The notes beneath the pieces are model-generated. The model made no database searches. It had not been told where the DNA came from and was given only the letters and a program-made list of their open reading frames with translations. A stretch of 45,824 nt of DNA from Proteromonas lacertae. Taxonomy: Eukaryota. Shown one piece after another: positions 16,632 through 45,824 of the stretch. The stretch spans positions 1 through 45,824 of the forward strand of contig NGBS01000639.1 in NCBI GenBank assembly GCA_002245135.1, written 5' to 3'. Every line of letters starts with the position of its first letter. Within the stretch, counting starts at the first letter, position 1. Both the position numbers and the translations under genes were made by a program.

Positions 16632-18950
16632 TAATTTCCTACATATTTATATAAAAATTCATACAATTAACTTATTTAAACGACTTTCATCTTTGTTTAT
16701 CTTTCATTCATCTTTTAAATCAAGAAAATTCATTTCGATTTTGATAATGTCATTTACATGTATCATTTACATTTTCATTCTTTTCAAACTCATTTCATCA
16801 TTATTTCTATTCTAATTTAGTTTTTAGTATATTTATAAGTATATCTACATATTGATAGGTAATATAAGAAAAATAATGATTGTTTAGTAAATATCGCAAT
16901 TTGTTAGTAGATAAAATTATACAACAACTTAATTAAAATAGAGAATTTATAATTGAATGAAAATTCAGAATATAAGATGATAGAAATGAAATACAAAATA
17001 ATACATGAAAATACATAACAATACAGTATAAAAATTTGATAAAAAGAAATGAATGAAATGAGAGAGAATATGAAAAAAAATGAACCGAATTTGGAAGTAT
17101 CTACTATACTGTATTTGATTTATACATGTAGATAAGAAGAGAAGTGAAATTGCTGAAATGTAAGAGTGTTTATGAAGTAAAAATGTTAAATGAAATGAAA
17201 ATCATAAAAATATATGAATTGAAGAAGATTCCAAATAATAAATTGATGAAATATAAAGAGAATATGTTAATGATCGAAAATTTAAGTGATAAATATATGA
17301 AAAGTGAAATGAAAATGAGTGATGATAATAACTATGTAATGATTAATCGAGATAAATATGATATTGATTTAAAATATCTAATATACAATAGTGAGAATGA
17401 AATATCCGTGAATGATGTGATATTATCAATATGTGAAACAATGAATATATTAAATGAGAATGAAATATATAATATGAATTTGAAAAGTTCCAATATAATA
17501 AATAAAAATGGTTTAATGAAAATGTGTGATATTAGTTTAAATGAATTGAGAAATGAAGATGAAATGAGAATAGAAATGAGTAATATAGAATATATAAGTT
17601 ATGAAGAGTTGAATGGATTAGAATATGATGATAAAAGTGTGATTTGGTCAATTTGTTGTATATTATATGAAATAATTTGTAAGAAATTACCATTCAATGA
17701 AGATGATAATGTGAATAAAACAATGAAGAACATAATAGAATGTAAATGGAAAGTAAAAATCTGTATAAATCCATTCTATTACAATATTCTATCCCAAATC
17801 TTCGTAAAAGAAAAATCAACTCGAATGAGTATAAAAGAATTGTATAAAGAAATGATCAAGATGAGTGAAATGTGGAGAGATGAAGAAAATGATGTAATGA
17901 TGTGTAAAGAACGAAAAGAAATGTTATTGAATATTGATTATTTACTAGAAATAACACCATTTAATCTTCAATCAGAATATTATCTTCAATATAATAGATA
18001 TGAAAGTATAAATAATATATTAAGGATAATCTTGATTATATTTAAATAGAAGTTAGAGATTGTTTAATAGATTCTTACAACAATAAACCTAGTGATAGAA
18101 TATTATCAATATTATTGATGATGGAATTATACAAAGAAGATGAATCAATAAAAGACAGATTGAAATTTCAAATTTATCACAAATGTAAAGAAAAAGAAAA
18201 AGAATATTATTTAGATGAAGAGATGTTTAATATTAATACTGGCGGTTGGAATAAATCGAAGATTTATATACATTCATGTATGATGAATTTATGTGAAGAA
18301 TGTATGGATTTTTTATTCAGAATATTGAAGATAATCAATCCAACACTGTTGCAATTTTGTATAATCATAATCATTACAAATTATATAGACTATTATAAGC
18401 CAACCATAAATCAATCATTATTTGCGTCTTTATTCTCTCAATTATCAAATCTACAAGAATTGGATTTATCTGAATGTAATATTTCTTTTGATTTTGTTAA
18501 ATCATTTGTTAAATCAATTTCATATATGAAATTGAAATATGTAAATCTTCAATGTATCAATTTGTTTTATTATTGTTTGAAATAGCTAATCCAATTGGTC
18601 CAAAAGGCTTCAAATTATTGCTTCCATATTTACATTTATTAATAGACAAAGATAATGAGTTGAATCTTTATGAAATGGATTTAGATGATGAATCAATGAT
18701 ACTATTATCAGAAGAATTATATAAATATCCAAATCTTCAGAAAATAGATATTAGATTAAACTGGAATATCTATTCAAAAGGATTAAAAGCCTTATTATTC
18801 TCTAAATTTCCTTTATCAAAAGTGAATTTTGATATTAATAAAAGGAAATATATATTAATAGATAAAAAAATTCCCAAATTAATTATATACATACAAGACA
18901 ATGATAGACTAAATTTAAGTGATTTAAGGATTGATGATGATTTTTTCAAA
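16632..18950 (+). repeat. Direct segmental duplication with ~25874-28185; upstream ~550 bp also has a diverged copy at ~6090-6660
   Basis: Line-by-line near identity at an offset of ~9240 through the upstream non-coding region and kinase exon, decaying across the LRR exons. Confidence 0.9.
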
Positions 18951-22531: not shown

Positions 22532-25485
22532 TCATATTTTTACTTTATGAGTAAGATTTTGTCTAAATGTGACTTGTTTCATAATATTATTCACAATATC
22601 TATATTTCCTCTTACTACAGCACTTATAACATCAGAACAATCACAGTCAGAAAATATATAACTCATTTCAACATCTTTCTTTTCTGATTTTGTAAAACTG
22701 TTACACTTCTCAACTATCAGCTTTAAAATTTCTTGATAATTAACTAATAAGTGATGTAATGATGTAACATATTGTTGAGGAATATTCTTCTTTGTTCCTG
22801 GTTTTGATAGAGTTATAAATATTTCACTTGTTATAAAACTAATAACAGAAATGAAGAATTGCATTTGTTTTACCTTCTCTATATCTAATATAACATTTTC
22901 TTCATTCAATAACTCGTTTATTATCACTTTAAATTCATCAAAACTTTTGTTTAACTCATTAATAACATTCTCTACATTCTTATAATCCTTATTCAATACC
23001 GAAACAATCAAATCCATCAATTTCATAACTATAGCAATATTCACTTCATATTTATTACATTTCTCTCTATTTTCTTCATTGAATATATCATCCAATTGAA
23101 TTTTTATCTTTTTCAACTCATCTGCTGAACTTTCTATAATATAATGAAGTAATTTTGGAAATAAAATGTAAAATCTTTGAATAGGTAATTGCTCAACATA
23201 GTAAACATCATTAGTGTGATTTGTTTTAGTGTATATTTTATCCCATTGAATTAATGGATTATAATTGTTATGATTTTCATAAGAAGGTATTTCTGATTGG
23301 TTGAATAAATAATTATACTTCAAATCACCAATTAAACAGCTTTTAATTGCTGCATTAATATCATTTACTGAGGATGATCTCATATATAAAAATGACAAAA
23401 TATAATAATTATAACTCTTAACAAATGATATAGAATGAGTTAAACTGTTTTGAAACTCTAAGAATTCTGGTATTCTTGAATAAGTCCTGTTATCCATTGC
23501 TGTTAATATTGATTCAGTTATTTCTTTATCACTATATATATAGGAATTAATATAATTTATACGATTTTATATAGAATCTAACCATACTTTCAGACAGGTC
23601 TTCTAAATTGGAATAATTCATATGATATAAGTAATTATCTAATTCAATATAGTTCAATGTATCATATTGAATATTAGATATTCTCATCATTTCTATAACA
23701 AAATATAAAACATATATATATATATACTATAGTTAGATTGAGAATTAACTATGTTACCAATCTCATTATCAATTGATACACTTATAAATCTCAATTGATT
23801 ATCACCTTTATAATTCTTTAAACCTATGTTACATAACATACTACAATTGATTAAATAACAATATTTCTTGTCTTTTAATATTAATGATTTCTCTCTTAAT
23901 ACGAATATGATATATAACAATAAATTATTTATATATTGTTCATTAGCTACAGTATTGGCTAATTTAGTATTACTATCAATATATATATTGTATAAATGTT
24001 TTAAAAACATTTCTTCCTCATTTTCATCTTCTTTATTGAATGAATAACCACAGTATCTGATTATTTGAAGTAATAAGATAATATAACATATATTATTGAA
24101 CAAATCTTTACCTTTTACAATAACATCACCACCACCATTATTATTATTATAGTTTTTAACTATTTCTACATATTTTCCAAGTGTTTCCATTATAATATCT
24201 TCACTCAAATGTATCTTATTATCTTCATTCATATCGTTCATTATTAATAATGATAAATATGGTTTGATATCATGAAAACATCCACAATAGTGCTTATATT
24301 TTTCAATATGACTATTCAAACAGTCTAAATATACTTTTATATATTTACTATCATCAGTATGAAGGTATAATGTATAATAGAAATAAACAAACATCAAACT
24401 ACCATACCTGTTTTTATTGTCTCTCTTTTCAACGATTGTCTTTATTTCATTGATTTTTTCTTTCATTCTTTCAACACTTTCTAATTAATAATATAAATAT
24501 ATTATTATAATATATATATATACCATCGCTAATCTTATTATTGATTATAATAATATCAATATATTGTTTATATATATTCCAATCAATATCAATACAATTC
24601 TTTAATAACTTTTCATAGGTACTTTCACTATCGTGATATTTGTTACTCTTCAACTGATATTCGCCTAATAACTCATTGTAATATTGATAATTAAATGGAC
24701 GACTAATATTTTTCCACTATAAAACAATATAAATAAATATATATATACAAATGGTGGTTCTTTTTCTACAGATTTTTTGTCTTTTTCTTCATCTTCTCTT
24801 TCTTCTTCTTCTTTTACTGGATGTAATTTTAATAAATTAATTGACTCTTCATATTGTTTCTTCTTTTCATATAAAATACATATAAATCTCAACAATTCAC
24901 TATCACATTTATCATTTAATGTCTTTATTAATGTTTTCTCACATAAATCATACATTAAAATTGATCCTTTCATTGCTTGAAAATACATTGATATACCACA
25001 CCATTCAAGATACTTTATATCATTTGTAAGTTTATTTAACAATATGCAATGACTTTGGAGTTTTCGATAATCTTTCATAAATAAAAACACATCACAAAAT
25101 TGTATTTGAATATTTACTAGACTATCACTATTCACAATAGAATTCAATGCTTCTAGTTCTAGCTCATAATGGTTTTTGTTACGCAGTATTGGCTTTATAA
25201 TGCTGTAAATATATTCATCAACTGATTTATTATACTATTACATTACATATACATACTAGAATATACAATTAGTTGTTGCACTAACTTTAATGCATCTTCT
25301 CTTTCACCATTACGAAATAATGCATAAGTTTTCAACGCCTAGATTTAAATATACTATCATAATACCTTTACTGTTTCATCTCGACATACTTCTTTACGAC
25401 TACACTGTTTTATTGCTAAACTGAATTTACCATCGTCAATTGATTCATATATCGATTTCAATATTTCTGCACTTTTGTTACTCAT
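22532..25485 (-). CDS. NAA25: NatB N-terminal acetyltransferase auxiliary subunit (NAA25/MDM20)
   Basis: N-terminal IYESIDDGKFSLAIKQC...ALKTYALFRNG (TPR-like), NIQYDTLNY, and AMDNRTYSRIPEFLEFQNSLTHS are typical of the NatB_MDM20 family. Multiple short introns. Confidence 0.8.
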
Positions 25486-25662
25486 GAGATTTTAGTGAAA
25501 ATTCAAAATTCTAATCTTCAAACAGGTTTGATTAAAGAAAAAAGAACATAAAAGAACTGATTGTTAATACCAAATAAGATTTGTTGTACAATTTAAATAT
25601 TCAATAAGCAAGTTCATTTAAACAATAAATTTTACAAATTATAATTTTCACTGATCTTACAA

Positions 25663-25743
25663 TTATACATTCATATCTCCTCTCAATTTCATTCCATCAG
25701 GTAAAACTTTTCTACTTCCACCAAATAACAAACAACAAATCAC
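25663..25743 (-). pseudogene. Isolated ~80-bp fragment of an MCM5 gene
   Basis: Minus-strand translation VICCLLFGGSRKVLPDGMKLRGDMNV* matches the MCM5 pre-Walker-A motif (CLLFGGSRKxLPDGxxxRGDINV). Flanks are not MCM-like. Confidence 0.75.
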
Positions 25744-26288
25744 TCATTACACATAATTCACATAAAATGAATTCATTTATAACATCAACAAAAACAAATA
25801 GAACTATTAAACAGAATTTAATATATCATTCATTCTACAATCAAAATTATGAACTACAACAGGTCTTTAATTCTAATTTCCTACATATTTATATAAAAAT
25901 TCATACAATTAACTTATTTAAACTACTTTCATCTTTGTTTATCTTTCATTCATCTTTTAAATCAAGAAAATTCATTTCGATTTTGATAATGTCATTTACA
26001 TGTATCATTTACATTTTCATTCTTTTCAAACTCATTTCATCATTATTTCTATTCTAATTTAGTTTTTAGTATATTTATAAGTATATCTACATATTGATAG
26101 GTAATATAAGAAAAATAATGATTGTTTAGTAAATATCGCAATTTGTTAGTAGATAAAATTATACAACAACTTAATTAAAATAGAGAATTTATAATTGAAT
26201 GAAAATTCAGAATATAAGATGATAGAAATGAAATACAAAATAATACATGAAAATACATAACAATACAGTATCAAAATTTGAAAAAGAA

Positions 26289-28204
26289 ATGAATGAAATG
26301 AGAGAGAATATGAAAAAAAATGAACCGAATTTGGAAGTATCTACTATACTGTATTTGATTTATACATGTAGATAAGAAGAGAAGTGAAATTGCTGAAATG
26401 TAAGAGTGTTTATGAAGTGAAAGTGTTAAATGAAATGAAAATCATAAAAATATATGAATTGAAGAAGATTTCAAATAATAAATTGATGAAATATAAAGAG
26501 AATATGTTAATGATCGAAAATTTAAGTGATAAATATATGAAAAGTGAAATGAAAATGAGTGATGATAATAATTATGTAATGATTAATCGAAATAGATATG
26601 ATATTGATTTAAAATATCTGATATACAATAGTGAGAATGAAATATCCGTGAATGATGTGATATTATCAATATGTGAAACAATGAATATATTAAATGAGAA
26701 TGAAATATATAATATGAATTTGAAAAGTTCCAATATAATAAATAAAAATGGTTTAATGAAAATGTGTGATATTAGTTTAAATGAATTGAGAAATGAAGAT
26801 GAAAATATGATAGAAATGAGTAATATAGAATATATAAGTTATGAAGAGTTGAATGGATTAGAATATGATGAAGGAAGTGTGATTTGGTCAATTGGATGTA
26901 TATTATATGAAATGATTTGTAAGAAATTACCATTCAATGAAGATGATAATGTGAATAAAACAATGAAGAACATAATAGAATGTAAATGGAAAGTAAAAAT
27001 CTGTATAAATCCATTCTATTACAATATTCTATCCCAAATCTTCGTAAAAGAAAAATCAACTCGAATGAGTATAAAAGAATTGTATAAAGAAATGATTAAG
27101 ATGAATAAAAAGCTGAGAGATGAAGAAAATGATGTAATGATGTGTAAAGAACAAAAAGAAATGTTATTGAATATTGATTATTTACTAGAAATAACACCAT
27201 TTAATCTTCAATCAGAATATTATCTTCAATATAATAGATATGAAAGTATAAATAATATATTAAGGATAATCTTGATTATATTTAAATAGAAGTTAGAGAT
27301 TGTTTAATAGATTCTTACAACAATAAACCTAGTGATAGAATATTATCAATATTATTGATGATGAAATTATACAAAGATGATGAATCAATAAAAGACAGAT
27401 TGAAATTTCAAATTTGTCACAAATGCAAATATAGAATGTTTCGACGTTATTTAGATGAAATGATGTTTAATTTCAAAATTGAAAAAAATGAGGAAAGAAT
27501 TGTTGTTAATTCAAAATGTATATGTGTATGTGAAGAAGGAATTAATTATATATTCAGAATATTGAAGATAATCAATCCAACAAAACTTGATATTAGTATA
27601 ATATTTATATTTATTATTATATTTTTACATAGATTTTTATTGTCGAATCCAACATCAATCATTAATAGCATCATATTTATCTAATTTATCAAATCTACAA
27701 GAATTGGATTTATCTGATTGTAATATTTCTTTTGATTTTATTGAATCATTTGTTAAATCAATTCCATTGATGAAGCTGAAATATGTAGATCTTCAATGTA
27801 TTTATTGTTTATTTCTACATTTTATTGATATAGCTAATCCAATTGGGACAAAAGGATTCAAATTATTACTTCCATATTTGCATTTATTAATCAACAAAGA
27901 CAATATATTGTATCTTTGTAAAATGCGTTTAAATAATTCTTCAATTCTGTTGTTATTATCAGATTTATATAAATATCCAGATCTTGAAATAATAGATATA
28001 AAAGAAAATGATAATATAGATTTAAAATCATTACAAGCATTATTCTCTAAATTTCCAATTTCAAAAATAGAATTTGATTTGAATAAAAAAAGTGAACTAC
28101 TTATTGATAAAAACATAACAGAATTAATGAAACACGCAAGTTGTTTAATTATGAATAATAGTGAAATGGATGATGATTTTTTAAATTATTATTCAGTGCA
28201 TTGA
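26289..28204 (+). CDS. Pseudokinase + LRR protein, copy 2 (3'-truncated, possibly pseudogene)
   Basis: Kinase exon nearly identical to 17144-18049 and LRRs diverged. Homology stops at about 28185, where copy 1 continues for ~450 more bp. Confidence 0.75.
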
Positions 28205-31520: not shown

Positions 31521-32730
31521 TCCTAAATCGAAGGTTATTCAATTACAATTTATAGAACTACCAAATACAAATCAATTCTATAAAAAAAGATTTAAAATAA
31601 GATTTGAAAGAAATGAAAGAAAGGAAAGAAAGGAAAGAGGAAATATTAATAATATAAATATACTGCTTGAACTGCATAAAATAACAATAAAAAAAAAATT
31701 AGATTCAAAATACGTTTATAGTTTGAGAATTTTATAGAATTTTCTAAAATCGAAAATGAGTATTTTAGAAAATATCGTAGCAGCATATCCTCTTGCTGAA
31801 ACTGATTTGATTTTTTATAATAAAAATAATATATTATTCTATACCACAGTTAGTATAGGAATAGATTTCAAATCACATTTTAGAGCTACTATTAAATATG
31901 ATATTTCAACACCAATAAATCAAATAATCATTTCTTTGATGCACTACAGTGTATTCATAATAACCGAAAAATTAAAAATTATATCAACTGATGTGATAAA
32001 AAATTCATAATGATGATTCATATTCCAATTTTTTATTTCTTTTAAACTTTTGTAGTATACATAATTTTTATAAATTAATGGATATATACAACAAATATAT
32101 ATTAAAATATAAATACTTTAATATAAATATTAAAAATATAATACAAATAATATGTAACTATATATTATAAATAATATGTTTGATTTGTAGGTATTTTTGT
32201 TAGATATTCAACTATTTTATAATGTCTGAGGTAGTAATTTTATATAGATATTATAGATGAATATAAAGAAAGATTGCATATAATTGTAAATGTTAGTTGA
32301 AAATGTTAATTATTTTTATATTTTATGCATTAATGCACATTACTATGTAATTTTCGTAATATTAGTTGCATTATAAATCGGTTTTAAAGTTAATTCAAAA
32401 ATCATAAAATTTTATTTTTTGATGTTATATGCTTATATAAAACTTTAATAGTTTTCTATTATGTATATAAAATATAAACTTCTAATTCAAACTCAAACAT
32501 AACAAAAAAATGAAAAGAAGAAATGTTAAAAGCAAAGAACCGGACACCGATCTGAGCCTTGTATACTAATCCCTATATAACCTCAAGCCAAATTTCTTAT
32601 AGTGTATAATTATACAATTTATATTATGTTGTTTGTATGTAATATCTATATTACAACCTATATTATACGATCAGATATTACATATAACTTCAGATTGAAT
32701 ATTCTTTTATTTGATCAATGATAGAGAATA

Positions 32731-33285
32731 TATACGATTCTAATAAGCGATTTAATAACCAACTCTCACTTCGAATTATCACATCTTTCATGTTTAATAT
32801 CTCGATCAAATTATTCATTTCTAATCTCAACAAATATTCATTGTTATATAAATATTTATATCCTCGCTTCTCTATTTCTTTCTCTAGCAAATCATGAATC
32901 TCTTTTGAATGTTCAGGGAATTTGTTTGAAATGTCTATAACTTTGATTAAGATATCATCATCAATATCTTCCATTATAAATCCAATACAATCATCCATGA
33001 ATTTTTTGTCAAAAAAATAAAGATTAAATATCAATATTTCCCACACAGTATCTTTACAGATTATCAATTCACCACCACTGTAGTATCTCTCCATCTCATA
33101 AAAAATAGTTTCGCTTATATCTTCAGGTAACTCCAAAACTCCAACAAACTCACGATCTAACAACAGTTTCTTTAGAGTTTCATTTCCATTCACTAAAATT
33201 GACTTGATTGATTTGATTATATTATCTCCACACCTCACTTCTATATCACCAAAACCACTTTCAACCAATTTTCGACATAATCTAT
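32731..33285 (-). repeat. 555-bp inverted duplication of 34636-35190 (BTB exon fragment; truncated ORF 32690-33268)
   Basis: Reverse complement matches 34636-35190; the translations are identical up to LLNRLLE. Spacer is 1350 bp. Confidence 0.95.
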
Positions 33286-34573
33286 TATTATAACATCAAT
33301 TTTCTTGAAGATGACAAATGTATATATTTTTACTTCTTTTACTAATGAAATTTAATTATTATTCGTTTCAAATATTATCTGATATGAAAATTTTATAATA
33401 ACTTTAACAGCAGCTTATTTAAAAAAGAAATTAAAATGTAGGCTTTTGCGAGGCTTGAACTCATTTTTTCTTTTTTCACTACCTTAACATTAAAAATAGT
33501 GTATTCTATTCATATCTTATAATGTATTTTAGACTGTAGTAGTCACTGATACATCAAAATAGAAAATATACAAAAATTAGTTTAATATTGAGAATAATGA
33601 AGTTCATAAAAAAGTATATCACAGATGTAGGTCATATGACAAACTAACTATATATTTGTTAATAACTCTTTATAACTAAGATAAAAATGATATTAGTTTG
33701 TTTTAAAAGTAATTATATGATGAGAGAGGCTCAACGGCGCACAACAGCTCGTACAAGTATTATGAAATTTAGCAACATTTGATTGTAACAATCTGTAACG
33801 AATTTATTTTTATTATGAAACTAACTACACTACAGTAAAGTTAAACATATAATCGAGAAAAATCACTTTAAGTCAAAATATAAAACGTTTTATATTTTTC
33901 AATTATAATTCAGTAATAGAAAGGTCTACACTACAATGAGATACGTGATGTTAGATATTCGATGGAAAGTGGTGCAATGAGAAAACATCCTCACGAATTG
34001 CTGATGAATATAATGAAGATCATGAACAATATAGTAACATAGTAGAATATATGAGAAGTTGTGTAAATAGAAGATGTACAATTGTTTATTACAAAGAGAA
34101 ATTGCTACTACTACAGTTACAGCCAAATTCAAAAGTGTGTGATGCTGCTTCTGATTTTTTTAATTCTTCTCCTACACAACAATAAGAATAAACTATTATA
34201 ATATGTAAATTGGCTTGATAATAATTCTTCGTGAATATACATACCAGGAACTTCACCACTTATTCGTCTGTTTTAATTCTTCTAAAAATAATATCACATT
34301 CTCATTATCAATAACTGCTTTTTGGAATGTTCTTTCAATTTATCACAAAACATTTTGAATGTAAATTCTCTTGTAGTGTATAGAATGTTGCTCTTTGCAT
34401 ATGTGATACTAAATTAACTAATGATAAGATTGAACCTGCTTTTTAACTCAATGTTCTATTTATCTTTGAGATTGATTCTATTACTTGAGGGAATAGTTTA
34501 ATATTCATCAGAAAAATGTATTATTGTCCTTATCACACTATCTGCAATAGAATAAAATCATGTTTACATAAAG

Positions 34574-36697
34574 ATGATAATAAAAGTGAATAAAAGCATA
34601 AGAGAAGAGGGGTATATTTTATATTTAATTTTATGATAGATTATGTCGAAAATTGGTTGAAAGTGGTTTTGGTGATATAGAAGTGAGGTGTGGAGATAAT
34701 ATAATCAAATCAATCAAGTCAATTTTAGTGAATGGAAATGAAACTCTAAAGAAACTGTTGTTAGATCGTGAGTTTGTTGGAGTTTTGGAGTTACCTGAAG
34801 ATATAAGCGAAACTATTTTTTATGAGATGGAGAGATACTACAGTGGTGGTGAATTGATAATCTGTAAAGATACTGTGTGGGAAATATTGATATTTAATCT
34901 TTATTTTTTTGACAAAAAATTCATGGATGATTGTATTGGATTTATAATGGAAGATATTGATGATGATATCTTAATCAAAGTTATAGACATTTCAAACAAA
35001 TTCCCTGAACATTCAAAAGAGATTCATGATTTGCTAGAGAAAGAAATAGAGAAGCGAGGATATAAATATTTATATAACAATGAATATTTGTTGAGATTAG
35101 AAATGAATAATTTGATCGAGATATTAAACATGAAAGATGTGATAATTCGAAGTGAGAGTTGGTTATTAAATCGCTTATTGGAATGGTATAAATTCCAAAA
35201 GAATAAGAAAGATTATAAAGAGTTAAAAGATGATTTTAAACACATGATAGAAGAAGATATCGATGGTGAAAAGATAAAAGAGAAAGAGATAACAAAAGAA
35301 AATAAAGATACGTTGAAAGAAATGATAATAGAATTAAAGAAAAATGAATGTAACAATCACATAGAATTATATTTAATAAAAGATGAGAGAATTCAAAATG
35401 TAATAATCAACAAATACAATGAAGATAATAAAGAAGAAGACTTTAATGAAGAAGAAAGAGGAATATTGGATAAAATGAAAGAAGAAGAATTGGATGATGA
35501 AATAATGTGTATATTAGAAACGAATAAAGTAAAAATGACCGAAATAGCATTGATGATAATGAAATATAAAAACAAGAAAATCGAAAGTATAAATATTACA
35601 AATATATTTAAATAGAATATATCTCAAATATCGAAAAGAGAAGTATATTGGATAGATTATGTATGGAATATAATGAGAATAAAAGAAATCGAACAATGAA
35701 AAGTATATGTTTATTTGTTGATGATAAAGAGGATATTTCAATAATAGAAGAAATATGTGGAAAAGAAATTCTTTTTAGAATATTGAATGAAGAATCTTAC
35801 TTAGACTCTGATGGCAAAGACAGTTTAATTGATTATATCCAAAACAAGAGATTGAATTTCGAAGAAGAAGAAGAAATGAGTGAAATCTTCAAAGATAAAG
35901 AATTATTGGAAGAATTAAAAACAAAAGAAATCACATCATTTTCATATCCTCAATCAGAATATTCATTTATACTAAATGAAGAAATAATTATAATCCCATC
36001 AGTTGATGGAGATGTAATTGAATTTTCAATAAATCCACCATTACCTAATGGAATAATGATAGATATAGACAATGGAATAATTTATGGAAAAGTAGAAGAA
36101 GAATATGAAAAGAGAGAATATGAAATAAGTTGTAAGAATATTGTAAATGAAAAGAAATTCAAAATGTCATTAGAATATGTGATAGGAAAATTTACAGAAT
36201 TAAACAAAAGTGATGAAATATCAATATCAAATAATGGACAAATAATAAGTAATACAAATGGTAGTTATAATCATTGTTGTTTGAATTTGAAAATGAAAAA
36301 TGGAGTTTATCATATCAAATATAAATTTAATCAAAATGGAAGTGAATATGATGATATTATTTTAGGATTATCAACAGATAATACATATTCTGGTAGTGGT
36401 ATTCATAATGAATCAACAACATGTAATTATGTTGCATTTGAAGATAAAAGTCAAGATATTACTTCATATTGTCATATTTGAAGAGTTGTAAATTCAAATC
36501 CAAATTTCAATAATCATGGAAATGATTCAATTTATGAAGTGATTGTTGATATGAATAAAAGAGAATTTTGGATTAATCATAATGATTCAGATCCTGTTTT
36601 ACTTGTTAAAGATTTACCTTCACCATTATATCCTTATGTTGAAATGTATTATTCAGAAAATTCAATTGAATTATTATCTATTTCAAATCAAAATTAA
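34574..36697 (+). CDS. BTB/BACK - helical - Ig-like (He_PIG-type) - SPRY/B30.2-like protein with one in-frame TGA (36479-36481)
   Basis: ATG 34574 MIIKVNKSIREEG/intron/LCRKLVESGFGDIEV. ORFs 34653 and 35648 are joined by an intron. After TGA (GGA in the 6979 paralog) the frame continues RVVNSNPNF...LPSPLYPYVEMYYSENSIELLSISNQN*. Confidence 0.8.
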
Positions 36698-36976
36698 ATA
36701 CTGATTGTTTTTTTAAATATATTATTTTCGTTTTATTTTTGATGTATAAATAATTTCCATAACATAAAATCAGTGTTAGTATACTTCCTATATATAGCAT
36801 ATACGCTATTTAACTATATAACTATTTTAATAAACACATAATTACACGAAAATACTCACAATTATAAATATAAAACAATTTCATCCTATCCAAAAAGCCT
36901 GTATACTTTGCTTAATTGTTTTTCTACCTAATGTTGTAAAGAAATATATTAATGATTTTAAGCAGGGTTGTATAAA

Positions 36977-37512
36977 TCGGTCATGACCGACGGAGAAAAC
37001 CGATCGGTCGTAGGTCAATAAATAAATGTTGACCGACACCAGGCTGTAGTAACTATTAGCTGACCTCCTCCTAAACATGTGATATTAATAATATTATCTA
37101 ACTGTACATATTGAATTCAAGCTCTATATATCATTCTATAAAATACCGAATTAACCGTCGGTCGATGCGCTTTTTTCTTTCTTCATAATTGAATCTAACC
37201 TTACCAATGAGTTATTCTATATATATATGTATAACCGTAAGAATATCACTGTATGTGGGTAAACCGTACCAGACTATTCTTAGGTGCCTTCTACAGGTAA
37301 GAATAAGCGATTTGAGTGTGAATTAGTTTTTGGTACGGGTTATACTGGAGCAAGCGGTGAATTTTAAATTGTGTATATATTTTAGTGTGTGAATAAATTT
37401 ATGGGTCAAATTTTATTTTTATATTTTTAATAGTTTTTAGCGTAGGATAGTAGAAATAAAGTGTATAAATAGATAAGTAGCTACCTGTTCTACCCCGGCA
37501 GGGTAGCTACTT
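36977..37512. repeat. Palindrome/hairpin cluster with five GACCGA/TCGGTC hexamers
   Basis: Palindromes TCGGTCATGACCGA (36977-36990) and ACCGATCGGT (36999-37008). Inverted repeats GACCGACGG 36985/CCGTCGGTC 37155 and AAGTAGCTACC 37475/GGTAGCTACTT 37502. Confidence 0.75.
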
Positions 37513-37863
37513 TATAAAATAAGAAATGTATTTCTATGTAAGTAAGTAGCGTGTCCTGTGTAGCCTGACTAGGACTTAGTGATTAAATAGTGTGGTGGCC
37601 AAGCTACAGAATGCGTTCTTACTTTTTTTTTAGTTATTTTTTTCATTTATCAATTTATTCATGGATTTATATAGTGTAGTTAAAAACATTCAAAAGAATT
37701 TAAATAGTGTCAAAAATATATATTTAAAGAATTATCTGCAGTATTCTATATTTTTTAATAAATCGAAATTCTGACGAGAAACTGTTGTTATAAACAGAAA
37801 AAAGAAACAGTTTTGATTTTCCTGATATTTTAGAAAAACCGTTTTTATCAAAAAATATAAAAT

Positions 37864-38343
37864 ATGTGTGCTTCAGTAAACTTTGCTTTCTTTTGTTCAT
37901 TTAGAAATAATGAAGATTATTTAGATAAGTGTATATGCGGAACATGTAAGTTTTACTTATATTTTAACCATAATATAAGTGCAGTTTTAGATAGCCCATT
38001 ACCTAAGGAAGAGATAAAGTCTTATAATGAATTCTGTGCTATTTGTCATCAAAAGATGTGGACAAAGTATAGTGATAAGAGATATTATATGATGCTTTTC
38101 GATATTAAACCATCAGTAAAACCAAGAGGATTAAATAGACATTATTTTGCAGTGTTTGATAAGTATATTGAATGGTTAACACTACCTGAAGGAATGGGAA
38201 GTGTTCATTTGAAGAAGAATCCTATGTTGAAACATTATGTAAAGAAGAATTATATATTTGATGATAGTGATGATGATGAGGAAGAAGAAGCACAAGAAGA
38301 AGTTAAAGGAAACAATGATCAAACTACGATAAACATAGTTTAA
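37864..38343 (+). CDS. Cys/His-rich (putative zinc-binding) protein with acidic tail, probably viral
   Basis: 159-aa intronless ORF with CICGTC...H...CAICH and C-terminal DDSDDDEEEE. Confidence 0.6.
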   Translation: MCASVNFAFFCSFRNNEDYLDKCICGTCKFYLYFNHNISAVLDSPLPKEEIKSYNEFCAICHQKMWTKYSDKRYYMMLFDIKPSVKPRGLNRHYFAVFDKYIEWLTLPEGMGSVHLKKNPMLKHYVKKNYIFDDSDDDEEEEAQEEVKGNNDQTTINIV

Positions 38344-38466
38344 ATTTTAAAACGAATCTTTATCTTAAAATGATTTGGAACAGGGTTTAAAAATATGCGT
38401 AATTTAATAAAAATCACGTAATATAATAAAAACATAATAAAAACATAATAAATTCTATAATAAAAA

Positions 38467-39330
38467 TTATAGTAATTGATCTGTATCATAATAATAATCA
38501 GAGAAACCAGTATCTAAAAACTTTGTATCTATCGTTTGTGGTAATATAGCTTGGTATTGATTTGCATCTACTCCACTACTTTGTAATAATAAATCAAAAC
38601 TGCGAGTATCATTATATAAATAGAAATTACAGTAAATTTTTTGTGGTGGTATTCTACTATTATCATGTAGCTCTATAGGGAATGGAATTGCATTAGAACC
38701 GTCATTAGGATATGCTTTTAATAAAGCATTATAGTATTTTTCAAGCATATCATTTGTATTATATTTCTTTTTTAACACGTTATTAGCATCTAACCATAAA
38801 CGTATACTACATTGACGATAATCACCACTAAATACTTGACATAATTTTAATATCTTAATTCTCATAAATGTAGTAAATAAAGTTACTTTAATAGGAATTT
38901 TATCAACAACTTCACCATCTCTTCCTACAGTCCATGTACAATAATATTCACTTAAGATGACTGGAGTTTTAATGTTCATTAATTTACAATGCTCATATAT
39001 AGATAAACAACATATGCCTTTGTTATAATCTATAAAATCACTATAATCATAATCATATTTTTGATAACCAGTTACTTGTTTTGTATTATAATCATTTTGT
39101 TCATTATTAGAAGATAATGTTGTGACTGCAGTTAATGTACTATCAATTTTATTATCACATCCACTTATTTTAATATTACATTTTTCAATTTCATCATTGA
39201 TGGGTTTAATAATAGTATCAGGATCAATAGGATCAGAAGGAGGAGGTATATTTATTTTGTCAGCTATATCTTTAGCAAGCTTATCTGTATCTATGTTTAA
39301 ATCAATAGTTTGTCTATCCCCAATAAACAT
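38467..39330 (-). CDS. Hypothetical viral protein, fiber/spike-like candidate
   Basis: Likely start MFIGDRQ at 39330. Pro hinge (IPPPSDPIDP), heptad stretch (INDEIEKCNIKISGCDNKIDSTLTAVTTL), then a globular aromatic-rich C-terminal domain. Co-oriented downstream of the ATPase/capsid genes. Confidence 0.6.
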   Translation of the reverse strand: MFIGDRQTIDLNIDTDKLAKDIADKINIPPPSDPIDPDTIIKPINDEIEKCNIKISGCDNKIDSTLTAVTTLSSNNEQNDYNTKQVTGYQKYDYDYSDFIDYNKGICCLSIYEHCKLMNIKTPVILSEYYCTWTVGRDGEVVDKIPIKVTLFTTFMRIKILKLCQVFSGDYRQCSIRLWLDANNVLKKKYNTNDMLEKYYNALLKAYPNDGSNAIPFPIELHDNSRIPPQKIYCNFYLYNDTRSFDLLLQSSGVDANQYQAILPQTIDTKFLDTGFSDYYYDTDQLL

Positions 39331-39374
39331 TTTTTGTATTAATAAACAATAAAATAATAAAATTAATAAAAACA

Positions 39375-40136
39375 TCAAGAAACTGCAGAATGATCTTCAA
39401 TTAAAATATTGAAGTTAGCTCTAAACACTTTTTTAACATTATCAATATATAAGAAGTTATATTGTGGCTTAGTAACAGCTAAATATAACTCTTTAAATGT
39501 TTCATATTCAGGTATCCATATATTCAATGAGTTGTATAAGTCAAACAAATTTCTATTACTCAATCCATAAAATGTTAAACAATAATCTACTTGTGATCTT
39601 GCTGAAGGCACTATATCAGTAATATATTGACTACTAATTATAATTTTTGATTTTAAATGTCTATTTTCTTTCATTAATACTGGTATGATATTAGCTGTTT
39701 TCAACTCTAAACTAAGATCATCAAATATTATAATATGTTCTGCATACTCATAATTATCTTTGTTTGTATCATCAATTGATTTCATTAACTTCTCTACTAA
39801 ATTATCTCCTGAATAAGGTTCAAATAATGAATCATTTTCATCATAACTAATTTCATTATAATCTAATAACTCTTTAATTGAATCATATATCCTATCTTGT
39901 TTGATTGTGCCTACGAAAAAATGTACATGTTGTTTTTTCTTATATTTTGGATCTATAATATGTCTTAATATATTGTATATCAAAGTGGTTTTACTACTGT
40001 TCTTACGAGCCACAATAAAAATATTGCAGAAAGGCTCATTAAAGTAATCATAACCCAGAATTTTCTTAGGATCAAAAGACTCACCACCATCAACAGGCTC
40101 AATTTGTATGTTATTTATTTTTTCAAATTTAAACAT
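39375..40136 (-). CDS. A32/FtsK-HerA-family DNA packaging ATPase
   Basis: Walker A IFIVARKNSSKTT, Walker B IIIFDD, then ENRHLKSKIIISSQ and IVPSARSQVDY, which are the A32-type RH, SQ and P-R motifs. Confidence 0.9.
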   Translation of the reverse strand: MFKFEKINNIQIEPVDGGESFDPKKILGYDYFNEPFCNIFIVARKNSSKTTLIYNILRHIIDPKYKKKQHVHFFVGTIKQDRIYDSIKELLDYNEISYDENDSLFEPYSGDNLVEKLMKSIDDTNKDNYEYAEHIIIFDDLSLELKTANIIPVLMKENRHLKSKIIISSQYITDIVPSARSQVDYCLTFYGLSNRNLFDLYNSLNIWIPEYETFKELYLAVTKPQYNFLYIDNVKKVFRANFNILIEDHSAVS

Positions 40137-40206
40137 AGTGTGTATATATATATATTATGTAGTGAGAAATCAAAAATAAAAATAGAAGTCAATAATAAAG
40201 TGTTAT

Positions 40207-41628
40207 TTATACTACTTTCTCAACACCTCTTGGTCCAATAACTAATTGTTTACCTGTAATAATATAGAATTTATGATGAATTGTATAAGTATTTTTTGCA
40301 GTATCAAAATCATGATTTGAGCAATCTAATGTAATTTTTAAATCACTTGCTAAGTCTTTACCAGCTCTTAATTTTAACTCAGTTAATCGATCAGTACTGA
40401 AATTTAATACATCAAAGAATCTATAAGGGAATGAATATGCTGAACATTTTTCATATAATGTATTTTGAATAATATTTCTCATATATTCCCAAGTTTGGTA
40501 TTTTGCAGGATATAAGTAGTCAGGAGTATAGACAAAATCATTAATTTGCCATCTAATTCTATCTTCTTCTTTATCAAAAGGAACTATAGTTCTTATATAA
40601 GCATCATTTATGTATGCTCTGTATAATATAAACTTAACATAACTTCCTATACTGCTATTAATACTGAAGTTATAGTTAAAAGTACTATTACCTGGAATAG
40701 GATCTTTAGTTATTTGAACTATGTTAAAATCAGTAAAGTCAATAGGATGATGAGTTGAATAATTGATGGTATTGGCATTGCAAGTTGGATCTTTGTTATA
40801 ACAAACATAAAGATGAGGATTAACTATTTTCATTCCTAAAAATGCTTGCCATTGGTTTATATATTTATCTCCATCATTATGATGAACCCAATTCATTATA
40901 GGTGCAAATGTGAATTGAATATAAATGACTTCACCAAAATAAATATCATTCTTCAAAGCTAAAATAGTATTGTATATGTCTGCAAAATGAAATCTACACA
41001 GTATTTGACCATGTAATGTATCTGTCACACCATTTTGCATTACATAATAATTTTGAACACCTCCACTTGGATTTAATGTATTAGCTGAATGACATAATAA
41101 ATTTTCACCTATTTTTTGATTTGCAGTATTAAATCCTAAACCATCAAATATTTTCTTGTAATAATCTGGTTCTTTTAAATCATAAGGAAATTGATTTGCA
41201 ATTTCATGAGCTAAATCTCTATATTCATTATAACTAGTATCCAAATCACATAGCAAAGTTCCTGTTTTGTTGTATACTTTTAATGTACCAAAATTCATAG
41301 TATTCTTCAATGTTAGTTTATCTAAATTATTTGCACTAGTATCTCTTTTAGGTACAAAAGGCATATCCCAATTACCTGAATCTGCAGCAGCATGAGCTCT
41401 AGTTTGACCTGTAGTATAATCTAATATGAATTCAAAATAGCTTTTTGATAAGTTAACACAATTATCACCAGATATTTCAAATGTAATAGCATCACTGTTT
41501 GAATTTAAAGATAAAACAGTCTCATTCCTGCTTTGGTTTGGAGTAACTAAAATATGGTTGTAAATTGGTATGTAAGCTGGCACAATGCTTTCATGCTTTT
41601 GTGAATTAGGTATAGCAGTGATTGACAT
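40207..41628 (-). CDS. Major capsid protein (double jelly-roll, Polinton/PLV type)
   Basis: 473 aa, beta-rich. N-terminal ITFEISGDNCVNLSKSYFEF resembles the Polinton-type I-x-F-x-I...[DN]L-S-x-S-Y-[LF] strand. Located between ATPase and penton; terminal strands KFYIITGKQLVIGPRGVEKV. Confidence 0.8.
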   Translation of the reverse strand: MSITAIPNSQKHESIVPAYIPIYNHILVTPNQSRNETVLSLNSNSDAITFEISGDNCVNLSKSYFEFILDYTTGQTRAHAAADSGNWDMPFVPKRDTSANNLDKLTLKNTMNFGTLKVYNKTGTLLCDLDTSYNEYRDLAHEIANQFPYDLKEPDYYKKIFDGLGFNTANQKIGENLLCHSANTLNPSGGVQNYYVMQNGVTDTLHGQILCRFHFADIYNTILALKNDIYFGEVIYIQFTFAPIMNWVHHNDGDKYINQWQAFLGMKIVNPHLYVCYNKDPTCNANTINYSTHHPIDFTDFNIVQITKDPIPGNSTFNYNFSINSSIGSYVKFILYRAYINDAYIRTIVPFDKEEDRIRWQINDFVYTPDYLYPAKYQTWEYMRNIIQNTLYEKCSAYSFPYRFFDVLNFSTDRLTELKLRAGKDLASDLKITLDCSNHDFDTAKNTYTIHHKFYIITGKQLVIGPRGVEKVV

Positions 41629-41682
41629 AATTTATGTTATTTTAAAAGATTAAAAAAATACTTAAAAATAGCAAGAAATTTA

Positions 41683-42654
41683 TTAATACAAAATAATCTC
41701 AAAATAAATAGGTAAGTTTTTTAAATAAATTGCATAACCATCTTGTTGTGTGACTGATATAGTCATTCGTTGATATTCGTGATATTGCATCTTCTTAGCT
41801 GTCCATTCAATTTGTGGATTAGTGAATGTGGTGTAGTTAGCATTAAGATCTTTCACAGGTATGTTAGCTAAAACCATTGAATTCTCACCACTATTAACCC
41901 AGTCACATCTAATTTGTATGAATGACACCCAAATTAAAGACGGTTGATTAGGCAATATTTTGTCATATTCTATATCAATATTATTAAAAAATGCTTCAAT
42001 TGGAGCTGCTGTATGATAAATATCTAACTTTTTGTTCATCTCATCTACACCATATAACTTATAAACTAAGTTAGGGAATTCAATGCTAAAATCTGTGAAA
42101 TATAATCTACCAAAATGAGTTAAGTATTTGAATTTTAAGTGTAATCTATTTTCTGAACTTTCACTAAATTGAAGTATATCTGTTTGATCATCTATTTTAC
42201 GAAACGGATAGTTTTGTGAAAGATCTTCATCTGGTAATGGTCCTGCTGCACCTGCTATTTCTGCAAAACTTAACGATAGTAACTTATTACTAAAAAATTC
42301 TAATAATTCTTTACCAGTATAATTTCTTTGAGGTATTTTAGCATCAATAGTTTTATAATAAGGTCCAAGCTGATTCTCAGGTTTTTCCCATTCTGCTGGA
42401 TTTGTTTTATCTGGATTTATGCATTCGTAGTAAGTGAAATTAAAGAGAATATGATCATTTACTTCATCTTGTACTGTATAGAAGTTATTTGGAATAACTG
42501 CAGTAATTAAACTCATATATTGATATTTTTCAGTAATAGTTGGAGTATTAATACATCTAACCCATTTATTAGATAATTTTTCATTATAGTCTGATGTTGT
42601 TAAGAATAATGTTCTTCTATTAGCTAATATGTTGTTACTATCTTTTGGTTGCAT
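41683..42654 (-). CDS. Minor capsid protein (penton, single jelly-roll)
   Basis: AVIPNNFYTV (IPNxFYxI/V motif), IQIRCDWV...SMVLANIPV and TISVTQQDGYAIYLKNLPIYFEIILY are typical of Polinton/PLV/virophage pentons. Confidence 0.85.
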   Translation of the reverse strand: MQPKDSNNILANRRTLFLTTSDYNEKLSNKWVRCINTPTITEKYQYMSLITAVIPNNFYTVQDEVNDHILFNFTYYECINPDKTNPAEWEKPENQLGPYYKTIDAKIPQRNYTGKELLEFFSNKLLSLSFAEIAGAAGPLPDEDLSQNYPFRKIDDQTDILQFSESSENRLHLKFKYLTHFGRLYFTDFSIEFPNLVYKLYGVDEMNKKLDIYHTAAPIEAFFNNIDIEYDKILPNQPSLIWVSFIQIRCDWVNSGENSMVLANIPVKDLNANYTTFTNPQIEWTAKKMQYHEYQRMTISVTQQDGYAIYLKNLPIYFEIILY

Positions 42655-42733
42655 TATGTTTTATAATTGTTGAGAAATATTAAAATATAATTTTATTTGA
42701 ATTATTCTTTAATTTATATATTGTTATATATAT

Positions 42734-45421
42734 ATGCAACCGCAACCTCAAGTTAACAATTCAAATGATGATGAAGAAGATGGACCCACAGATGATGATG
42801 AATATGAATATGAAGAAGATGAAGATAATGTACCTATTGATATGAGCAGAATAAGACATAGAAGAAGACATAGAAGGAATCAAGTCATACCATTTCAAAA
42901 TATAAGTGAAGATGATTTAAATAATTATGTGGATCAAGAAGTGAAAAGATTTAACAAAGCATTAATTATTCAATATAGACTTATTCCAATAGGTTGGCCA
43001 AATCATGAGTTTAATAGAATATATAATTTATATGATGAACATATGAAAATGTTTAATTGGTGTAAGAATTTATTTGTAACAGGTCCTTTTGCGCATGGTA
43101 AACCATTAGAAGCTTATAATCCAAAATTAACAGGAAATGAAAACTCTGCTAATGCAAGAGAATGTGGCATATTTAAAACTCGTATAGCAGATGGTATTGA
43201 TAAATTGTGTATGGCATCTGATTTTATATTACAAAGAAATCCATTTGTTGTTTTACACCCAAAAGAGAGAATAGGTGTTACACAACTAGAAAATAGAAGA
43301 ATTAAAAAAACTCATTATGAAATTGATGAAAGACATCCAGAACCAGAAAATGATTTTAACATAATGAATAATGAACATTATAATAGTGCAGCTGAAATAA
43401 GAGCGGAAAATGTTATGCAAAATAGACATGATAATATGGTAAGAGGAGTATTAGTAAATGCAGACAATGGAAGTAATGATAATAACAATAATAACAACAA
43501 TGGAAATAATAGCAATGATAATAATGTAAATAATAATAACAATGCAAATTATGATATAATTAGCTTTTGTGATTCTCTGAAAGATAAGTTAAAGTTTTAT
43601 ATAGGTCGTTTAATGAGAACTAAATTTTGGTATTTAACAAATCAAAAAGAAGAAACAGCTTATTCAATTGCGTTAATCATATACAACTGTGTAACTGATT
43701 TGTATATATTAGCTTTATATTACATACCAATATTAAAAGATAAGTTAAGTGGAGATTATCAAAATGATAATGAATATACTTTACCATATCATCCTGATAG
43801 AAGAAATTTTATGGGATTACCAGATGGTGATAATAGAACTGGATATAGATATAACTATTTAGCAACTATACAAAAAATATTATCAGAAGCTCATGTACCA
43901 CAAGGACAAATCAATACAAATATATTTGCTAATCCTATAACTTTTAGAATGAATAGAGCTTTAGATACACAACTTAACCGTCAAATTAAACATAGAAGAT
44001 CAGTTCCAGCTTATGTTGGAATGAATGTTGCAGATCATAGAAATTGGAGATATGTTGCACCAGCTAATTATCCTCCTGCTCATCCATCAATTACTGCAGA
44101 TTTGATTGATAGAAATGTTAATGCATTTTATAATGCATCACCTGCAAATAGTGATAGTGAAGATAATGATAATAATCCATCAAGTAGTGATACTGAAGAA
44201 GATTCAGACACTTATGATCTTGGTGATATGAGTAATCAAATACCACCGCCTCCTTTGCCACCAAGACCTATACCAGCAAGAACTGATCAACAACAACCAC
44301 CTCCACCTCCTCCTGTATTAAATGTATCTAGATCTAATGTAATTAGTTTAAATAATCAATTTAATCCTCATCATCTTATACCATCTGATAGATTTTCATT
44401 TTTAGTACCAGATGATTTGCTTAATGCTATACCAAATCCAAATAGAGACTTTAATAAATCTCATAGATTTTTAGCTACTAGAGAAAATGGAGCAAAAATA
44501 GGTGTAACTAAGATAATACAAGAGTTTTATACACAATTGTTAACAAATAATGGTAAAATCTATTCAATTGATGCATTTATACATAATCATAATCCACCTT
44601 GTACATTTGTAGATGAAAATTCAAATAAGAGTTATATGTTCTTTACTGATTGGGTTAGAGAAGAAAACATCAATTTACCTTTATTACCTAGATCTACATA
44701 TAATGCAACTGAAGTAAATGATATACCTCAAAATTACAGTAGTATCAATATGATGTTTTATGGATATGATTACAATAGAAATATATATTCATATACTGGT
44801 TTATTAGAATATTGGTTAAAGAATCATCGAGGAACAGCATTTAATGAAAGACAAGCTAAGCAGGAAATATACATATATAATCCATGTATTAATATTCTAT
44901 CAGATGATGAAGAGGAAAATAAAAACATAAAAGTATTAATAGGTATGGATTATGATAAAAATTGGCCTAACGATAAAAAAATCAAATGTAAACAAATTAA
45001 AGTAATAGTATCTCAAGAAAGTGATAGAGCATGGTATGTAATAAGTGATCCAATGTTTGATTATATGTCATGCGATATACCAGGTGATGGAATTCACAAA
45101 TTCTATAACTATCCATTCTTTGTTAAGATAGGAGATACAGTAGAATTGATAGTACCAGTATCTTTAAAAGATAATATTTATGTATTAAAAGATGCAAGAT
45201 TAGATGATAAAGATGAAAATAATTATTTAAAAATTGATGATTATATGAGAAATGCAAATCGAGATAGTATTAATCAAAGAGCTATTGATGATAGAGAAAC
45301 AGCTAAGCGTAGAATACAAGGTTTAGGTAAAAAGCGTAGAAGAAAGACACAATCATTAGTAAAATTGTATACCAAATTGTTTACACACAATAATAAAAGA
45401 AAAAGAATAAAAATTATATAG
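42734..45421 (+). CDS. 895-aa viral hypothetical protein (acidic N-terminus, Arg-rich NLS-like, poly-Asn, poly-Pro, basic C-terminal tail)
   Basis: Single intronless 2.7-kb ORF, divergent from the capsid module; ends IQGLGKKRRRKTQSL...KRKRIKII. Confidence 0.75.
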   Translation: MQPQPQVNNSNDDEEDGPTDDDEYEYEEDEDNVPIDMSRIRHRRRHRRNQVIPFQNISEDDLNNYVDQEVKRFNKALIIQYRLIPIGWPNHEFNRIYNLYDEHMKMFNWCKNLFVTGPFAHGKPLEAYNPKLTGNENSANARECGIFKTRIADGIDKLCMASDFILQRNPFVVLHPKERIGVTQLENRRIKKTHYEIDERHPEPENDFNIMNNEHYNSAAEIRAENVMQNRHDNMVRGVLVNADNGSNDNNNNNNNGNNSNDNNVNNNNNANYDIISFCDSLKDKLKFYIGRLMRTKFWYLTNQKEETAYSIALIIYNCVTDLYILALYYIPILKDKLSGDYQNDNEYTLPYHPDRRNFMGLPDGDNRTGYRYNYLATIQKILSEAHVPQGQINTNIFANPITFRMNRALDTQLNRQIKHRRSVPAYVGMNVADHRNWRYVAPANYPPAHPSITADLIDRNVNAFYNASPANSDSEDNDNNPSSSDTEEDSDTYDLGDMSNQIPPPPLPPRPIPARTDQQQPPPPPPVLNVSRSNVISLNNQFNPHHLIPSDRFSFLVPDDLLNAIPNPNRDFNKSHRFLATRENGAKIGVTKIIQEFYTQLLTNNGKIYSIDAFIHNHNPPCTFVDENSNKSYMFFTDWVREENINLPLLPRSTYNATEVNDIPQNYSSINMMFYGYDYNRNIYSYTGLLEYWLKNHRGTAFNERQAKQEIYIYNPCINILSDDEEENKNIKVLIGMDYDKNWPNDKKIKCKQIKVIVSQESDRAWYVISDPMFDYMSCDIPGDGIHKFYNYPFFVKIGDTVELIVPVSLKDNIYVLKDARLDDKDENNYLKIDDYMRNANRDSINQRAIDDRETAKRRIQGLGKKRRRKTQSLVKLYTKLFTHNNKRKRIKII

Positions 45422-45824
45422 TTTTAAATTTTGTTTCTAACATTTTAGCTCTTTTTTCTCCTTTTAATGAATTAAAATTTGTTGCTTGCACAAACGATTT
45501 GTTATTTACTATGATATCAACTAAAAACAAAATTGCATGATAACCACATCTTACACTATCAACTCTTTGATTTTTAACTCTATTTATTTTTATCTTATAT
45601 CCATCATTAGGATATTATTTTAATTTTGTTAAATCTTTATAAAACTTTGTTATTTGTTTAGGTTTATCTCCAAAACTATCATAGTACATTATCCTCCTAG
45701 TATTATTGTTAACACATAAACTAACCCAATGACCTATTTACTTACAGGATCTTTAGTTGTATTAGTACAAAGTATAACACACCAAACATTTTCATTTTTA
45801 CATAGTTGACCTATTTTGCTAAGT
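45414..45824 (-). pseudogene. Adenain/Ulp1-like (clan CE) virion maturation cysteine protease, 5'-truncated by the window; one frameshift and one in-frame TAA
   Basis: Manual translation: ...WCVILCTNTTKDPVSK/fs ~45738/IGHWVSLCVNNNTRRIMYYDSFGDKP...KLK*YPNDGYKIKINRVKNQRVDSVRCGYHAILFL...KFKTI*. His at 45729, Asp at 45678, Gln, and Cys at 45546 are in clan-CE order. Confidence 0.85.

Follow-up and report, generated by a model that had tools for sequence, protein, structure and literature searches.

The right-hand end of the 45,824-nt stretch of DNA analysed here (contig NGBS01000639.1, positions 1 to 45,824; the whole of it is hereafter the window) carries what we judge, at a probability of roughly 0.8, to be the left part of a likely integrated Polinton-like virus (PLV; Polisuviricotina), encoding a major capsid protein (MCP) of the double jelly-roll type together with an adenain-type protease, and likely belonging to an unnamed cluster of capsids from the lizard-gut protist Proteromonas lacertae. 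From ~37 kb to the window end, intron-bearing host genes give way to a tight series of uninterrupted open reading frames (ORFs); all six whole viral ORFs lack interruptions, and the intergenic gaps measure 45-124 nt. The coordinates and strands of these ORFs agree with those of an earlier, sequence-only reading of this DNA, whose central claim, i.e., a morphogenesis module of Polinton, PLV or virophage type beside protist genes, is supported by the evidence set out below. The features concerned are as follows.

37864-38343, plus strand: 159-aa ORF with a cysteine-rich N-terminal half and an acidic tail.
38467-39330, minus strand: 287-aa ORF, candidate fibre or spike (287 aa from an ATG, 303 from a TTG).
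39375-40136, minus strand: 253-aa packaging ATPase of A32/FtsK type, with an atypical P-loop.
40207-41628, minus strand: 473-aa MCP, a double jelly-roll in the predicted model.
41683-42654, minus strand: 323-aa likely penton, of single jelly-roll type and bearing an inserted domain, encoded directly upstream of the MCP.
42734-45421, plus strand: 895-aa protein of no known family, whose C-terminus holds a site of adenain type, predicted at residues 861-865, and after it a basic tail of 31 aa.
45414-45824, minus strand: 3' part of a cysteine protease of adenain type (clan CE), interrupted by a frame break and by a stop in frame.
36960-37600, no strand: non-coding stretch, rich in CpG and GC and holding small hairpins, that is likely the left end of the element and may be a terminal repeat.
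34653-36697, plus strand: nearest host gene (BTB/BACK-like family), outside the element; its 29-nt intron lies at 35587, and a stop at 36479-36481 interrupts its frame.

The 473-aa protein, for which no sequence match was found in Pfam, PHROG or the PDB, is a double jelly-roll MCP by its predicted fold. When its model, folded with its Logan homologues (predicted local distance difference test score [pLDDT] 53, predicted template-modelling score [pTM] 0.54), was compared with the PDB by Foldseek, the mavirus MCP matched at E 9.5e-11 and that of Sputnik at 1.1e-8, with mavirus and Sputnik MCPs filling the top five rows. Across 48,161 chains, VIA placed PBCV-1 first (Z 14.8, root-mean-square deviation [rmsd] 4.3, 317 residues aligned); ranks 1-14 were held by double jelly-roll proteins only, and the first unrelated row followed at Z 7.4. 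Matches in BFVD were a mix of ascovirus, MELD, virophage and adintovirus entries. The capsid identity proposed earlier is thus borne out by all three comparisons, and the fold of the model can be taken as established; it does not fix the class of virus, since PDB Foldseek ranks virophage capsids first, VIA nucleocytovirus capsids and BFVD an ascovirus.

Homologues of this MCP fall into seven Logan clusters at 38-77% identity, and both it and the penton align with their homologues to both ends. A profile search over 1.84 billion representatives retrieved 213 proteins at E<=0.001, of which 34 reach 1e-10 and 12 reach 1e-30; beyond this core of 12 extends a tail at ~20-30% local identity. All six close relatives that were checked come from Logan assemblies only, and one of four tail proteins checked is a transcript of the protist Lithocolla globosa; none of 50 chosen profile matches (from 150 listed of the 213 found) hit a Pfam capsid family. 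In a quick tree of 34 rows (the 12 core and 22 tail sequences, fragments and other matches being left out), the 12 core rows are set apart by a branch of length 1.58, which has a Shimodaira-Hasegawa-like approximate likelihood ratio test (SH-aLRT) value of 100; the tree does not place the clade because no named reference capsid was included. The tail itself comprises some 200 proteins distantly like the MCP (P0083-P0216, e.g., P0086), mostly of 430-480 aa among the matches listed, and motif searches in the available parts of the supplement of PMC10120064 gave no tie between this group and a named one.

The 323-aa protein is likely the penton. No Pfam, PHROG or PDB sequence match was found for it, and its model (pLDDT 59.5) is good in the insertion only, with the jelly-roll parts below 50. 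BFVD returned 15 matches at E<=0.001 for the model, some of them, with E 7e-6 and 6e-4, to putative minor capsid proteins, and VIA gave a best Z of 6.6, with the mavirus penton at Z 6.2 (rmsd 12.3, 220 residues aligned); alignments to the mavirus penton and other viral capsid chains span 199-234 residues, against ~100 for generic jelly-rolls. Of the two proteins on whose jelly-roll folds the sequence-only reading had hinged, the 473-aa protein has that fold in its predicted model and the 323-aa protein appears, weakly, to have it. Penton homologues form five Logan clusters (36-60%), and their five longest contigs have the same sizes as those of the MCP homologues (9425, 5898, 5312, 4850 and 3110 nt), which suggests, from sizes alone, that the two genes share contigs.

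The packaging ATPase and the fibre, both named in the earlier reading, also find some support. The best Pfam and best PDB matches of the 253-aa protein are both to packaging ATPases and both weak, namely Pox_A32 (E 1.3e-3; 18.7 bits, under the 22.8 cut-off) and the STIV B204 packaging NTPase (E 0.0075), and phage records gave no match. Its P-loop (39981-40004, minus strand) reads ARKNSSKT, with serine before the lysine where glycine is usual; this serine may be typical of the family, may be one more lesion beside the two in the protease, or may have been miscalled. For the 287-aa protein, which has no Pfam, PHROG or PDB sequence match, a three-copy model scored 0.41 against 0.00 for the best control, on a scale calibrated on two copies rather than three, where 21 of 30 solved pairs but none of 23 single chains attained the mark; at least 44% of contacts agree between runs, at a pLDDT of at least 48. 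The predicted interface is a heptad-spaced stretch at residues ~40-86, followed by a C-terminal region of uncertain fold, and the model supports, but does not show, a trimeric coiled-coil fibre or spike. The 159-aa ORF gave only a sub-threshold C4 zinc-finger match (E 0.07) in a Pfam-type scan, no homologue search having been made for it.

The last gene of the series is a cysteine protease, as the sequence-only reading had proposed. Read with an X at its stop, it matches Peptidase_C48 (E 9.8e-7) and Peptidase_C5 (E 3.1e-5; 24.2 bits against a cut-off of 21.3), both above the Pfam cut-offs, and His, Asp, Gln and Cys motifs are visible. Two lesions disrupt it: the frame breaks near 45736-45740, and a stop falls in frame at 45617-45615. 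The gene starts somewhere past the window end. Decay in its early stages and poor sequence near the end of the record both fit these lesions; judged by its sequence, the copy as assembled could not make a working protease. An alternative genetic code for the stop was rejected because the same codon terminates the MCP and the penton exactly where their homologues end; an intron at the frame break was likewise set aside, the sole GT-AG span noticed there being 12 nt against 29-44 nt in the host genes. The module had been called complete, with its long ORFs still open and its integration recent. Openness holds for the six whole ORFs and fails for the protease; completeness does not hold for the module as assembled, given the two lesions and the truncation at the window end, and recency is unproven, being weakened by the same lesions, although these could be sequence errors near the record end.

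On its left, the element is likely integrated beside the host genes. The last host gene stops at 36697, and none of the marks tested supports the border at 36900 that had been drawn earlier; it would lie somewhere within 36698 to ~36960. Just beyond, 36960-37600 (641 nt, with borders set after the profile was viewed) contains 20 CpG at a GC content of 0.343, compared with maxima of 15 and 0.328 in host windows of the same size, and the fold z for 36900-37860 is -2.4 against 20 shuffles. This stretch is likely the left end of the element, perhaps a terminal repeat with its partner beyond the window; no such partner or second copy was found within the window. GC-rich hairpins and a short palindrome at 37490-37506 and 36978-37035 could be an origin or terminal-repeat structure. 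Rfam returned no match within 33000-45824, and a scan for bacterial promoters, with a bacterial model unsuited to a eukaryote, stayed at chance level. Some 8.9 kb of the element lies inside the window, which cuts it at 45824 with the right junction outside; a Polinton-like virus in the broad sense would be expected to have a genome of 15-45 kb, with a replicase, an integrase or recombinase, and terminal repeats.

The host side fits a small-intron protist, as had been proposed: 13 of 16 candidate introns in the host genes, picked by script as GT-AG spans bridging long ORFs, measure 29-44 nt, the other three (24, 76 and 93 nt) being doubtful picks. Five of six scanned host ORFs have a Pfam match, and the host ORFs include a NatB subunit, two kinases, part of an AAA_12 helicase and an AMP-binding enzyme. 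The GC content is 24.6% in the host part and 27.1% in the element, within the range of values reported for Proteromonas (27%) and tortoise Blastocystis (21-23%) (PMC12129017); this and the intron sizes fit Proteromonas or a reptile Blastocystis, though the host may also be an AT-rich protist outside the opalinatans.

By eye, the capsid is also a clear homologue of a P. lacertae MCP cluster reported by Bellas et al. 2023 (PMC10120064). Table S3 of that work prints a 450-aa P. lacertae MCP, confirmed there by Foldseek, and comparison of the window MCP with the first ~400 of those 450 residues yields six blocks in the same order, within which 59 of 91 residues are identical (13/20, 9/15, 5/8, 16/23, 8/13 and 8/12, including NLSKSY and INSSIG), a count for hand-picked blocks and not an overall identity. 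In Table S4, 285 Proteromonas matches form one cluster (number 25 or 26 by our own column count), marked 'new' and without a group label; membership would call for an MCP with >=25% identity to cluster members over 30% of the length. Table S1 holds 10 Blastocystis rows without a count. Proteromonas MCPs appear as a PLV cluster in the network of a 2026 study (10.64898/2026.07.28.741278), the only work our literature search on Proteromonas, Polintons and capsids found, and the main text of a 2026 PLV framework, where seen, does not name Proteromonas (10.64898/2026.06.19.733378). No related loci were found in scans of IMG/VR, JGI metagenomes and GTDB genomes with a few short patterns. The suggestion of an undescribed lineage is weakened by this homology; going by the capsid sequence, the clade is probably one already catalogued and barely described.

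Beyond the capsid genes, our analysis draws attention to the 895-aa protein and its predicted cleavage site. No Pfam, PHROG or PDB sequence match was found for this protein, and a homologue search covering protein sizes of 492-1567 aa gave a single Logan cluster, which has 20 members and is 43% identical over 96% of the protein. At the C-terminus, the window protein reads IQGL|G and then KKRRRK, and the homologue, in every one of the 15 members listed, ISGG|G and then KRKR (the bar marking the predicted cut), in keeping with the adenovirus protease consensus, (M/I/L/N/Q)XGG|X or XGX|G (PMC6048507), and with IVGL|G, at which pVIc is freed (PMC4246237). The site is kept in 15 of 15 listed members of the 20-member cluster, and it is the only consensus site common to a window protein and its homologues; a second one in the 895-aa protein, at residue 782, is not kept in the homologue and was discarded. 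Cleavage would release tails of 31 aa (window) and 19 aa (homologue), with 13 and 7 Lys/Arg and no cysteine. In 20,000 shuffles of the last 45 residues, a site with a basic run arose in 0.8% and 0.4% for the two sequences, figures for a motif defined after it was seen and for two related sequences. The contigs that carry the full-length homologues (P0052-P0065) measure 2.86-2.97 kb in every case and so hardly exceed the gene itself; it looks as though assembly stops at either flank, an effect to be expected from numerous similar copies.

The capsid itself offers the protease no such target. Mavirus protease cuts the tail of its own MCP, and in virophage MCPs the C-terminal domain typically (10 of 12, and not as a formal criterion) contains several sites of the form GG|X or GX|G (PMC6048507); the window MCP has none in its last 100 residues and ends with its fold. 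GG does occur within the last 100 residues of four of seven MCP homologue representatives, inside the aligned fold and not in an extension, and no adenain consensus site was found in the window MCP or penton. As the MCP is without a cleavable tail, the 895-aa protein is a likely substrate of the viral protease, and the sequences lead us to favour, if only somewhat, its being cut at the C-terminal site; that the released peptide would then serve as a protease cofactor we hold with less confidence. The conserved adenain-type site and basic tail that end this protein and its one homologue cluster, and a window capsid lacking virophage-type cleavage sites, are new observations.

By extension from known relatives, a model of the particle can be proposed. 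The MCP would form an icosahedral shell, with the 323-aa penton and 287-aa trimeric fibre at its vertices; the ATPase would package the genome and the protease would mature the particle. The 895-aa protein would be an internal virion protein that loses its basic C-terminal peptide to the protease, and genes for replication and integration would be found further right, outside the window. A bolder version, which we think unlikely as a whole yet worth stating, posits a deep, unnamed branch of Polisuviricotina, restricted perhaps to opalinatan protists of the gut, whose virions mature as those of adenoviruses do; i.e., its protease would spare the capsid and cut a large internal protein, freeing a basic peptide that acts like pVIc as a DNA-binding sled, protease cofactor or nuclear signal.

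Alternatively, the C-terminus of the 895-aa protein may be a nuclear localisation signal behind a glycine linker, the protein being a non-virion factor and the element otherwise as described, an explanation we consider a genuine possibility falling somewhat short of even odds. A C-terminal Lys/Arg run is a common nuclear signal, the 895-aa gene runs opposite to the capsid genes, and a bare consensus site turns up somewhere in 25-29% of whole-protein shuffles, i.e., in about one of four. The tails of 31 and 19 aa without cysteine also depart from adenovirus pVIc, which is 11 aa long with a strictly conserved Cys10 (PMC4246237). Against this stand the Ile at P4 and the Gly at P2 and P1', kept in both proteins even though 17 upstream residues are deleted in the homologue, the rarity of a site plus basic run in the C-terminal shuffles (subject to the post hoc motif and the relatedness noted above), and the singularity of this site as the one shared between a window protein and its homologues. 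Cleavage by the protease remains our preferred interpretation, with the caution that it draws on one homologue cluster and on a motif defined after sighting.

Several points weigh against the identification of the element as a whole. Its link to the Proteromonas cluster was made by eye, the fold databases disagree on the nearest class (virophage, nucleocytovirus or ascovirus), the MCP and penton models are of low confidence (pLDDT 53 and 59.5), the best penton Z is no higher than common folds give, and the ATPase match falls short of the Pfam cut-off. Moreover, the right end, integrase, polymerase and target-site duplication are outside what the window shows, such that a chimeric join is possible. 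A real viral genome, free or located elsewhere, could have been joined by the assembler to a host contig: the element appears to sit at the record end, and the final 410 nt contain both lesions of the protease, in contrast to the remaining viral ORFs (~7.2 kb), which are without a stop or frame break, as poor contig-end sequence would give. We nevertheless regard such a join as improbable, given that the junction side bears a distinct non-coding CpG-rich stretch of 0.6 kb, as a terminal repeat would, that the element has no matches to the rest of the window that could cause a repeat-induced join, and that related capsids have hundreds of matches in a protist assembly (PMC10120064). Yet more improbable, in our estimation, is a divergent endogenous virophage (Virophaviricetes) parasitising a gut protist's giant virus. 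The window has each of the four core gene types of virophages, the penton lies directly upstream of the MCP, and virophage capsids head the PDB Foldseek ranking; formally, virophages are recognised by an MCP, ATPase and protease detected with virophage hidden Markov model profiles (Roux et al. 2023, PMC9952930). However, the 473-aa MCP ends with its fold and is free of virophage-type sites over its last 100 residues, Sputnik is the first match for other PLV capsids that are not from virophages as well, and Bellas et al. place the Proteromonas cluster outside the virophage columns (PMC10120064). An integrated PLV thus remains the reading that we prefer.

The host region to the left is rich in recent gene-family copies. 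The nearest host gene, which has a BACK match (E 9e-4) under the cut-off, shares 91% identity across 1332 nt with a paralog at 6644-7974, the ORF of which (6943-8025) reads through where the former has its stop. Segmental duplications (91-99%) of kinase, LRR-like (leucine-rich-repeat-like) and BTB-like host genes were seen at 5660-7974, 16624-18890, 24893-28135 and 35313-36640, two of them ~9240 nt apart. A 563-nt inverted duplication (32726-33288 against 34633-35195; 99% identical, 1344 nt apart) comprises the 5' part of the BTB/BACK-like gene, ~1.8 kb left of the virus, and could be a recent rearrangement or an assembly artefact. At 11029-12824 (minus strand) lies an intron-split AMP-binding enzyme (E 2e-41) with an apparent C-terminal carrier domain, presumably resembling a fatty acyl-AMP ligase and possibly acquired from bacteria. 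The Blastocystis downstream motif TGTTTGTT has seven exact matches in the window, which are not linked to gene ends, and it was not used.

One more insertion would be ordinary, as endogenous Polinton-like viruses are common in protists. For this capsid clade, however, the literature passages that we found hold only counts, one supplement sequence and a label in one network figure; from the window come the order of the genes, a penton, a candidate fibre, a protease and, for the latter, a specific substrate that can be tested. Those passages likewise held no answer as to what Polinton-type proteases cut when the capsid is without a cleavable tail, for which the 895-aa protein is a direct test case. 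Should the bolder model be true, viruses of protists would have their own counterpart of the way adenoviruses mature, including a vertex that bears a fibre.

Among known systems, the P. lacertae MCP cluster shares with the window a similar MCP size (304-509 aa in 15 listed genes) and an AT-rich protist; PMC10120064, in the parts seen, gives counts and one printed MCP, to which the window adds gene order, penton, protease, fibre candidate and the 895-aa protein. Gosseviruses (GKS1) and group 1 Maverick-Polintons likewise combine an MCP, penton, A32 ATPase and cysteine protease, Gosseviruses being the one major PLV group with a core protease and occurring in stramenopile genomes (10.64898/2026.06.19.733378); the printed GKS1 MCP is 576 aa, compared with 473 aa here, and by eye has none of the six blocks, and Bellas et al. 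keep the Proteromonas cluster apart (PMC10120064). With Polintoviricetes the window shares an adenain-type protease, here in a broken copy, whereas pPolB and integrase are not within the window. Mavirus and Sputnik resemble it in their four core gene types, in a penton beside the MCP and as the best PDB Foldseek matches, yet the window MCP is without their cleavable C-terminal domain and is 9-12% identical to theirs in structural alignment. The Blastocystis and rumen MELD viruses are also DNA viruses of middling size, known from datasets of gut protists, and their virion proteins cannot be recognised from sequence (Starrett et al. 2021, PMC8502044); a BFVD match from this group is 14% identical to the MCP, and no named MELD protein is among the MCP or penton homologue matches. 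Finally, adenovirus pVI, with its pVIc peptide, offers the closest analogy to the 895-aa protein in having an XGX|G-type site near the C-terminus followed by a Lys/Arg run; no homology between the two was found, and the putative precursor in the window is 895 aa, with a longer tail that is without the conserved cysteine.

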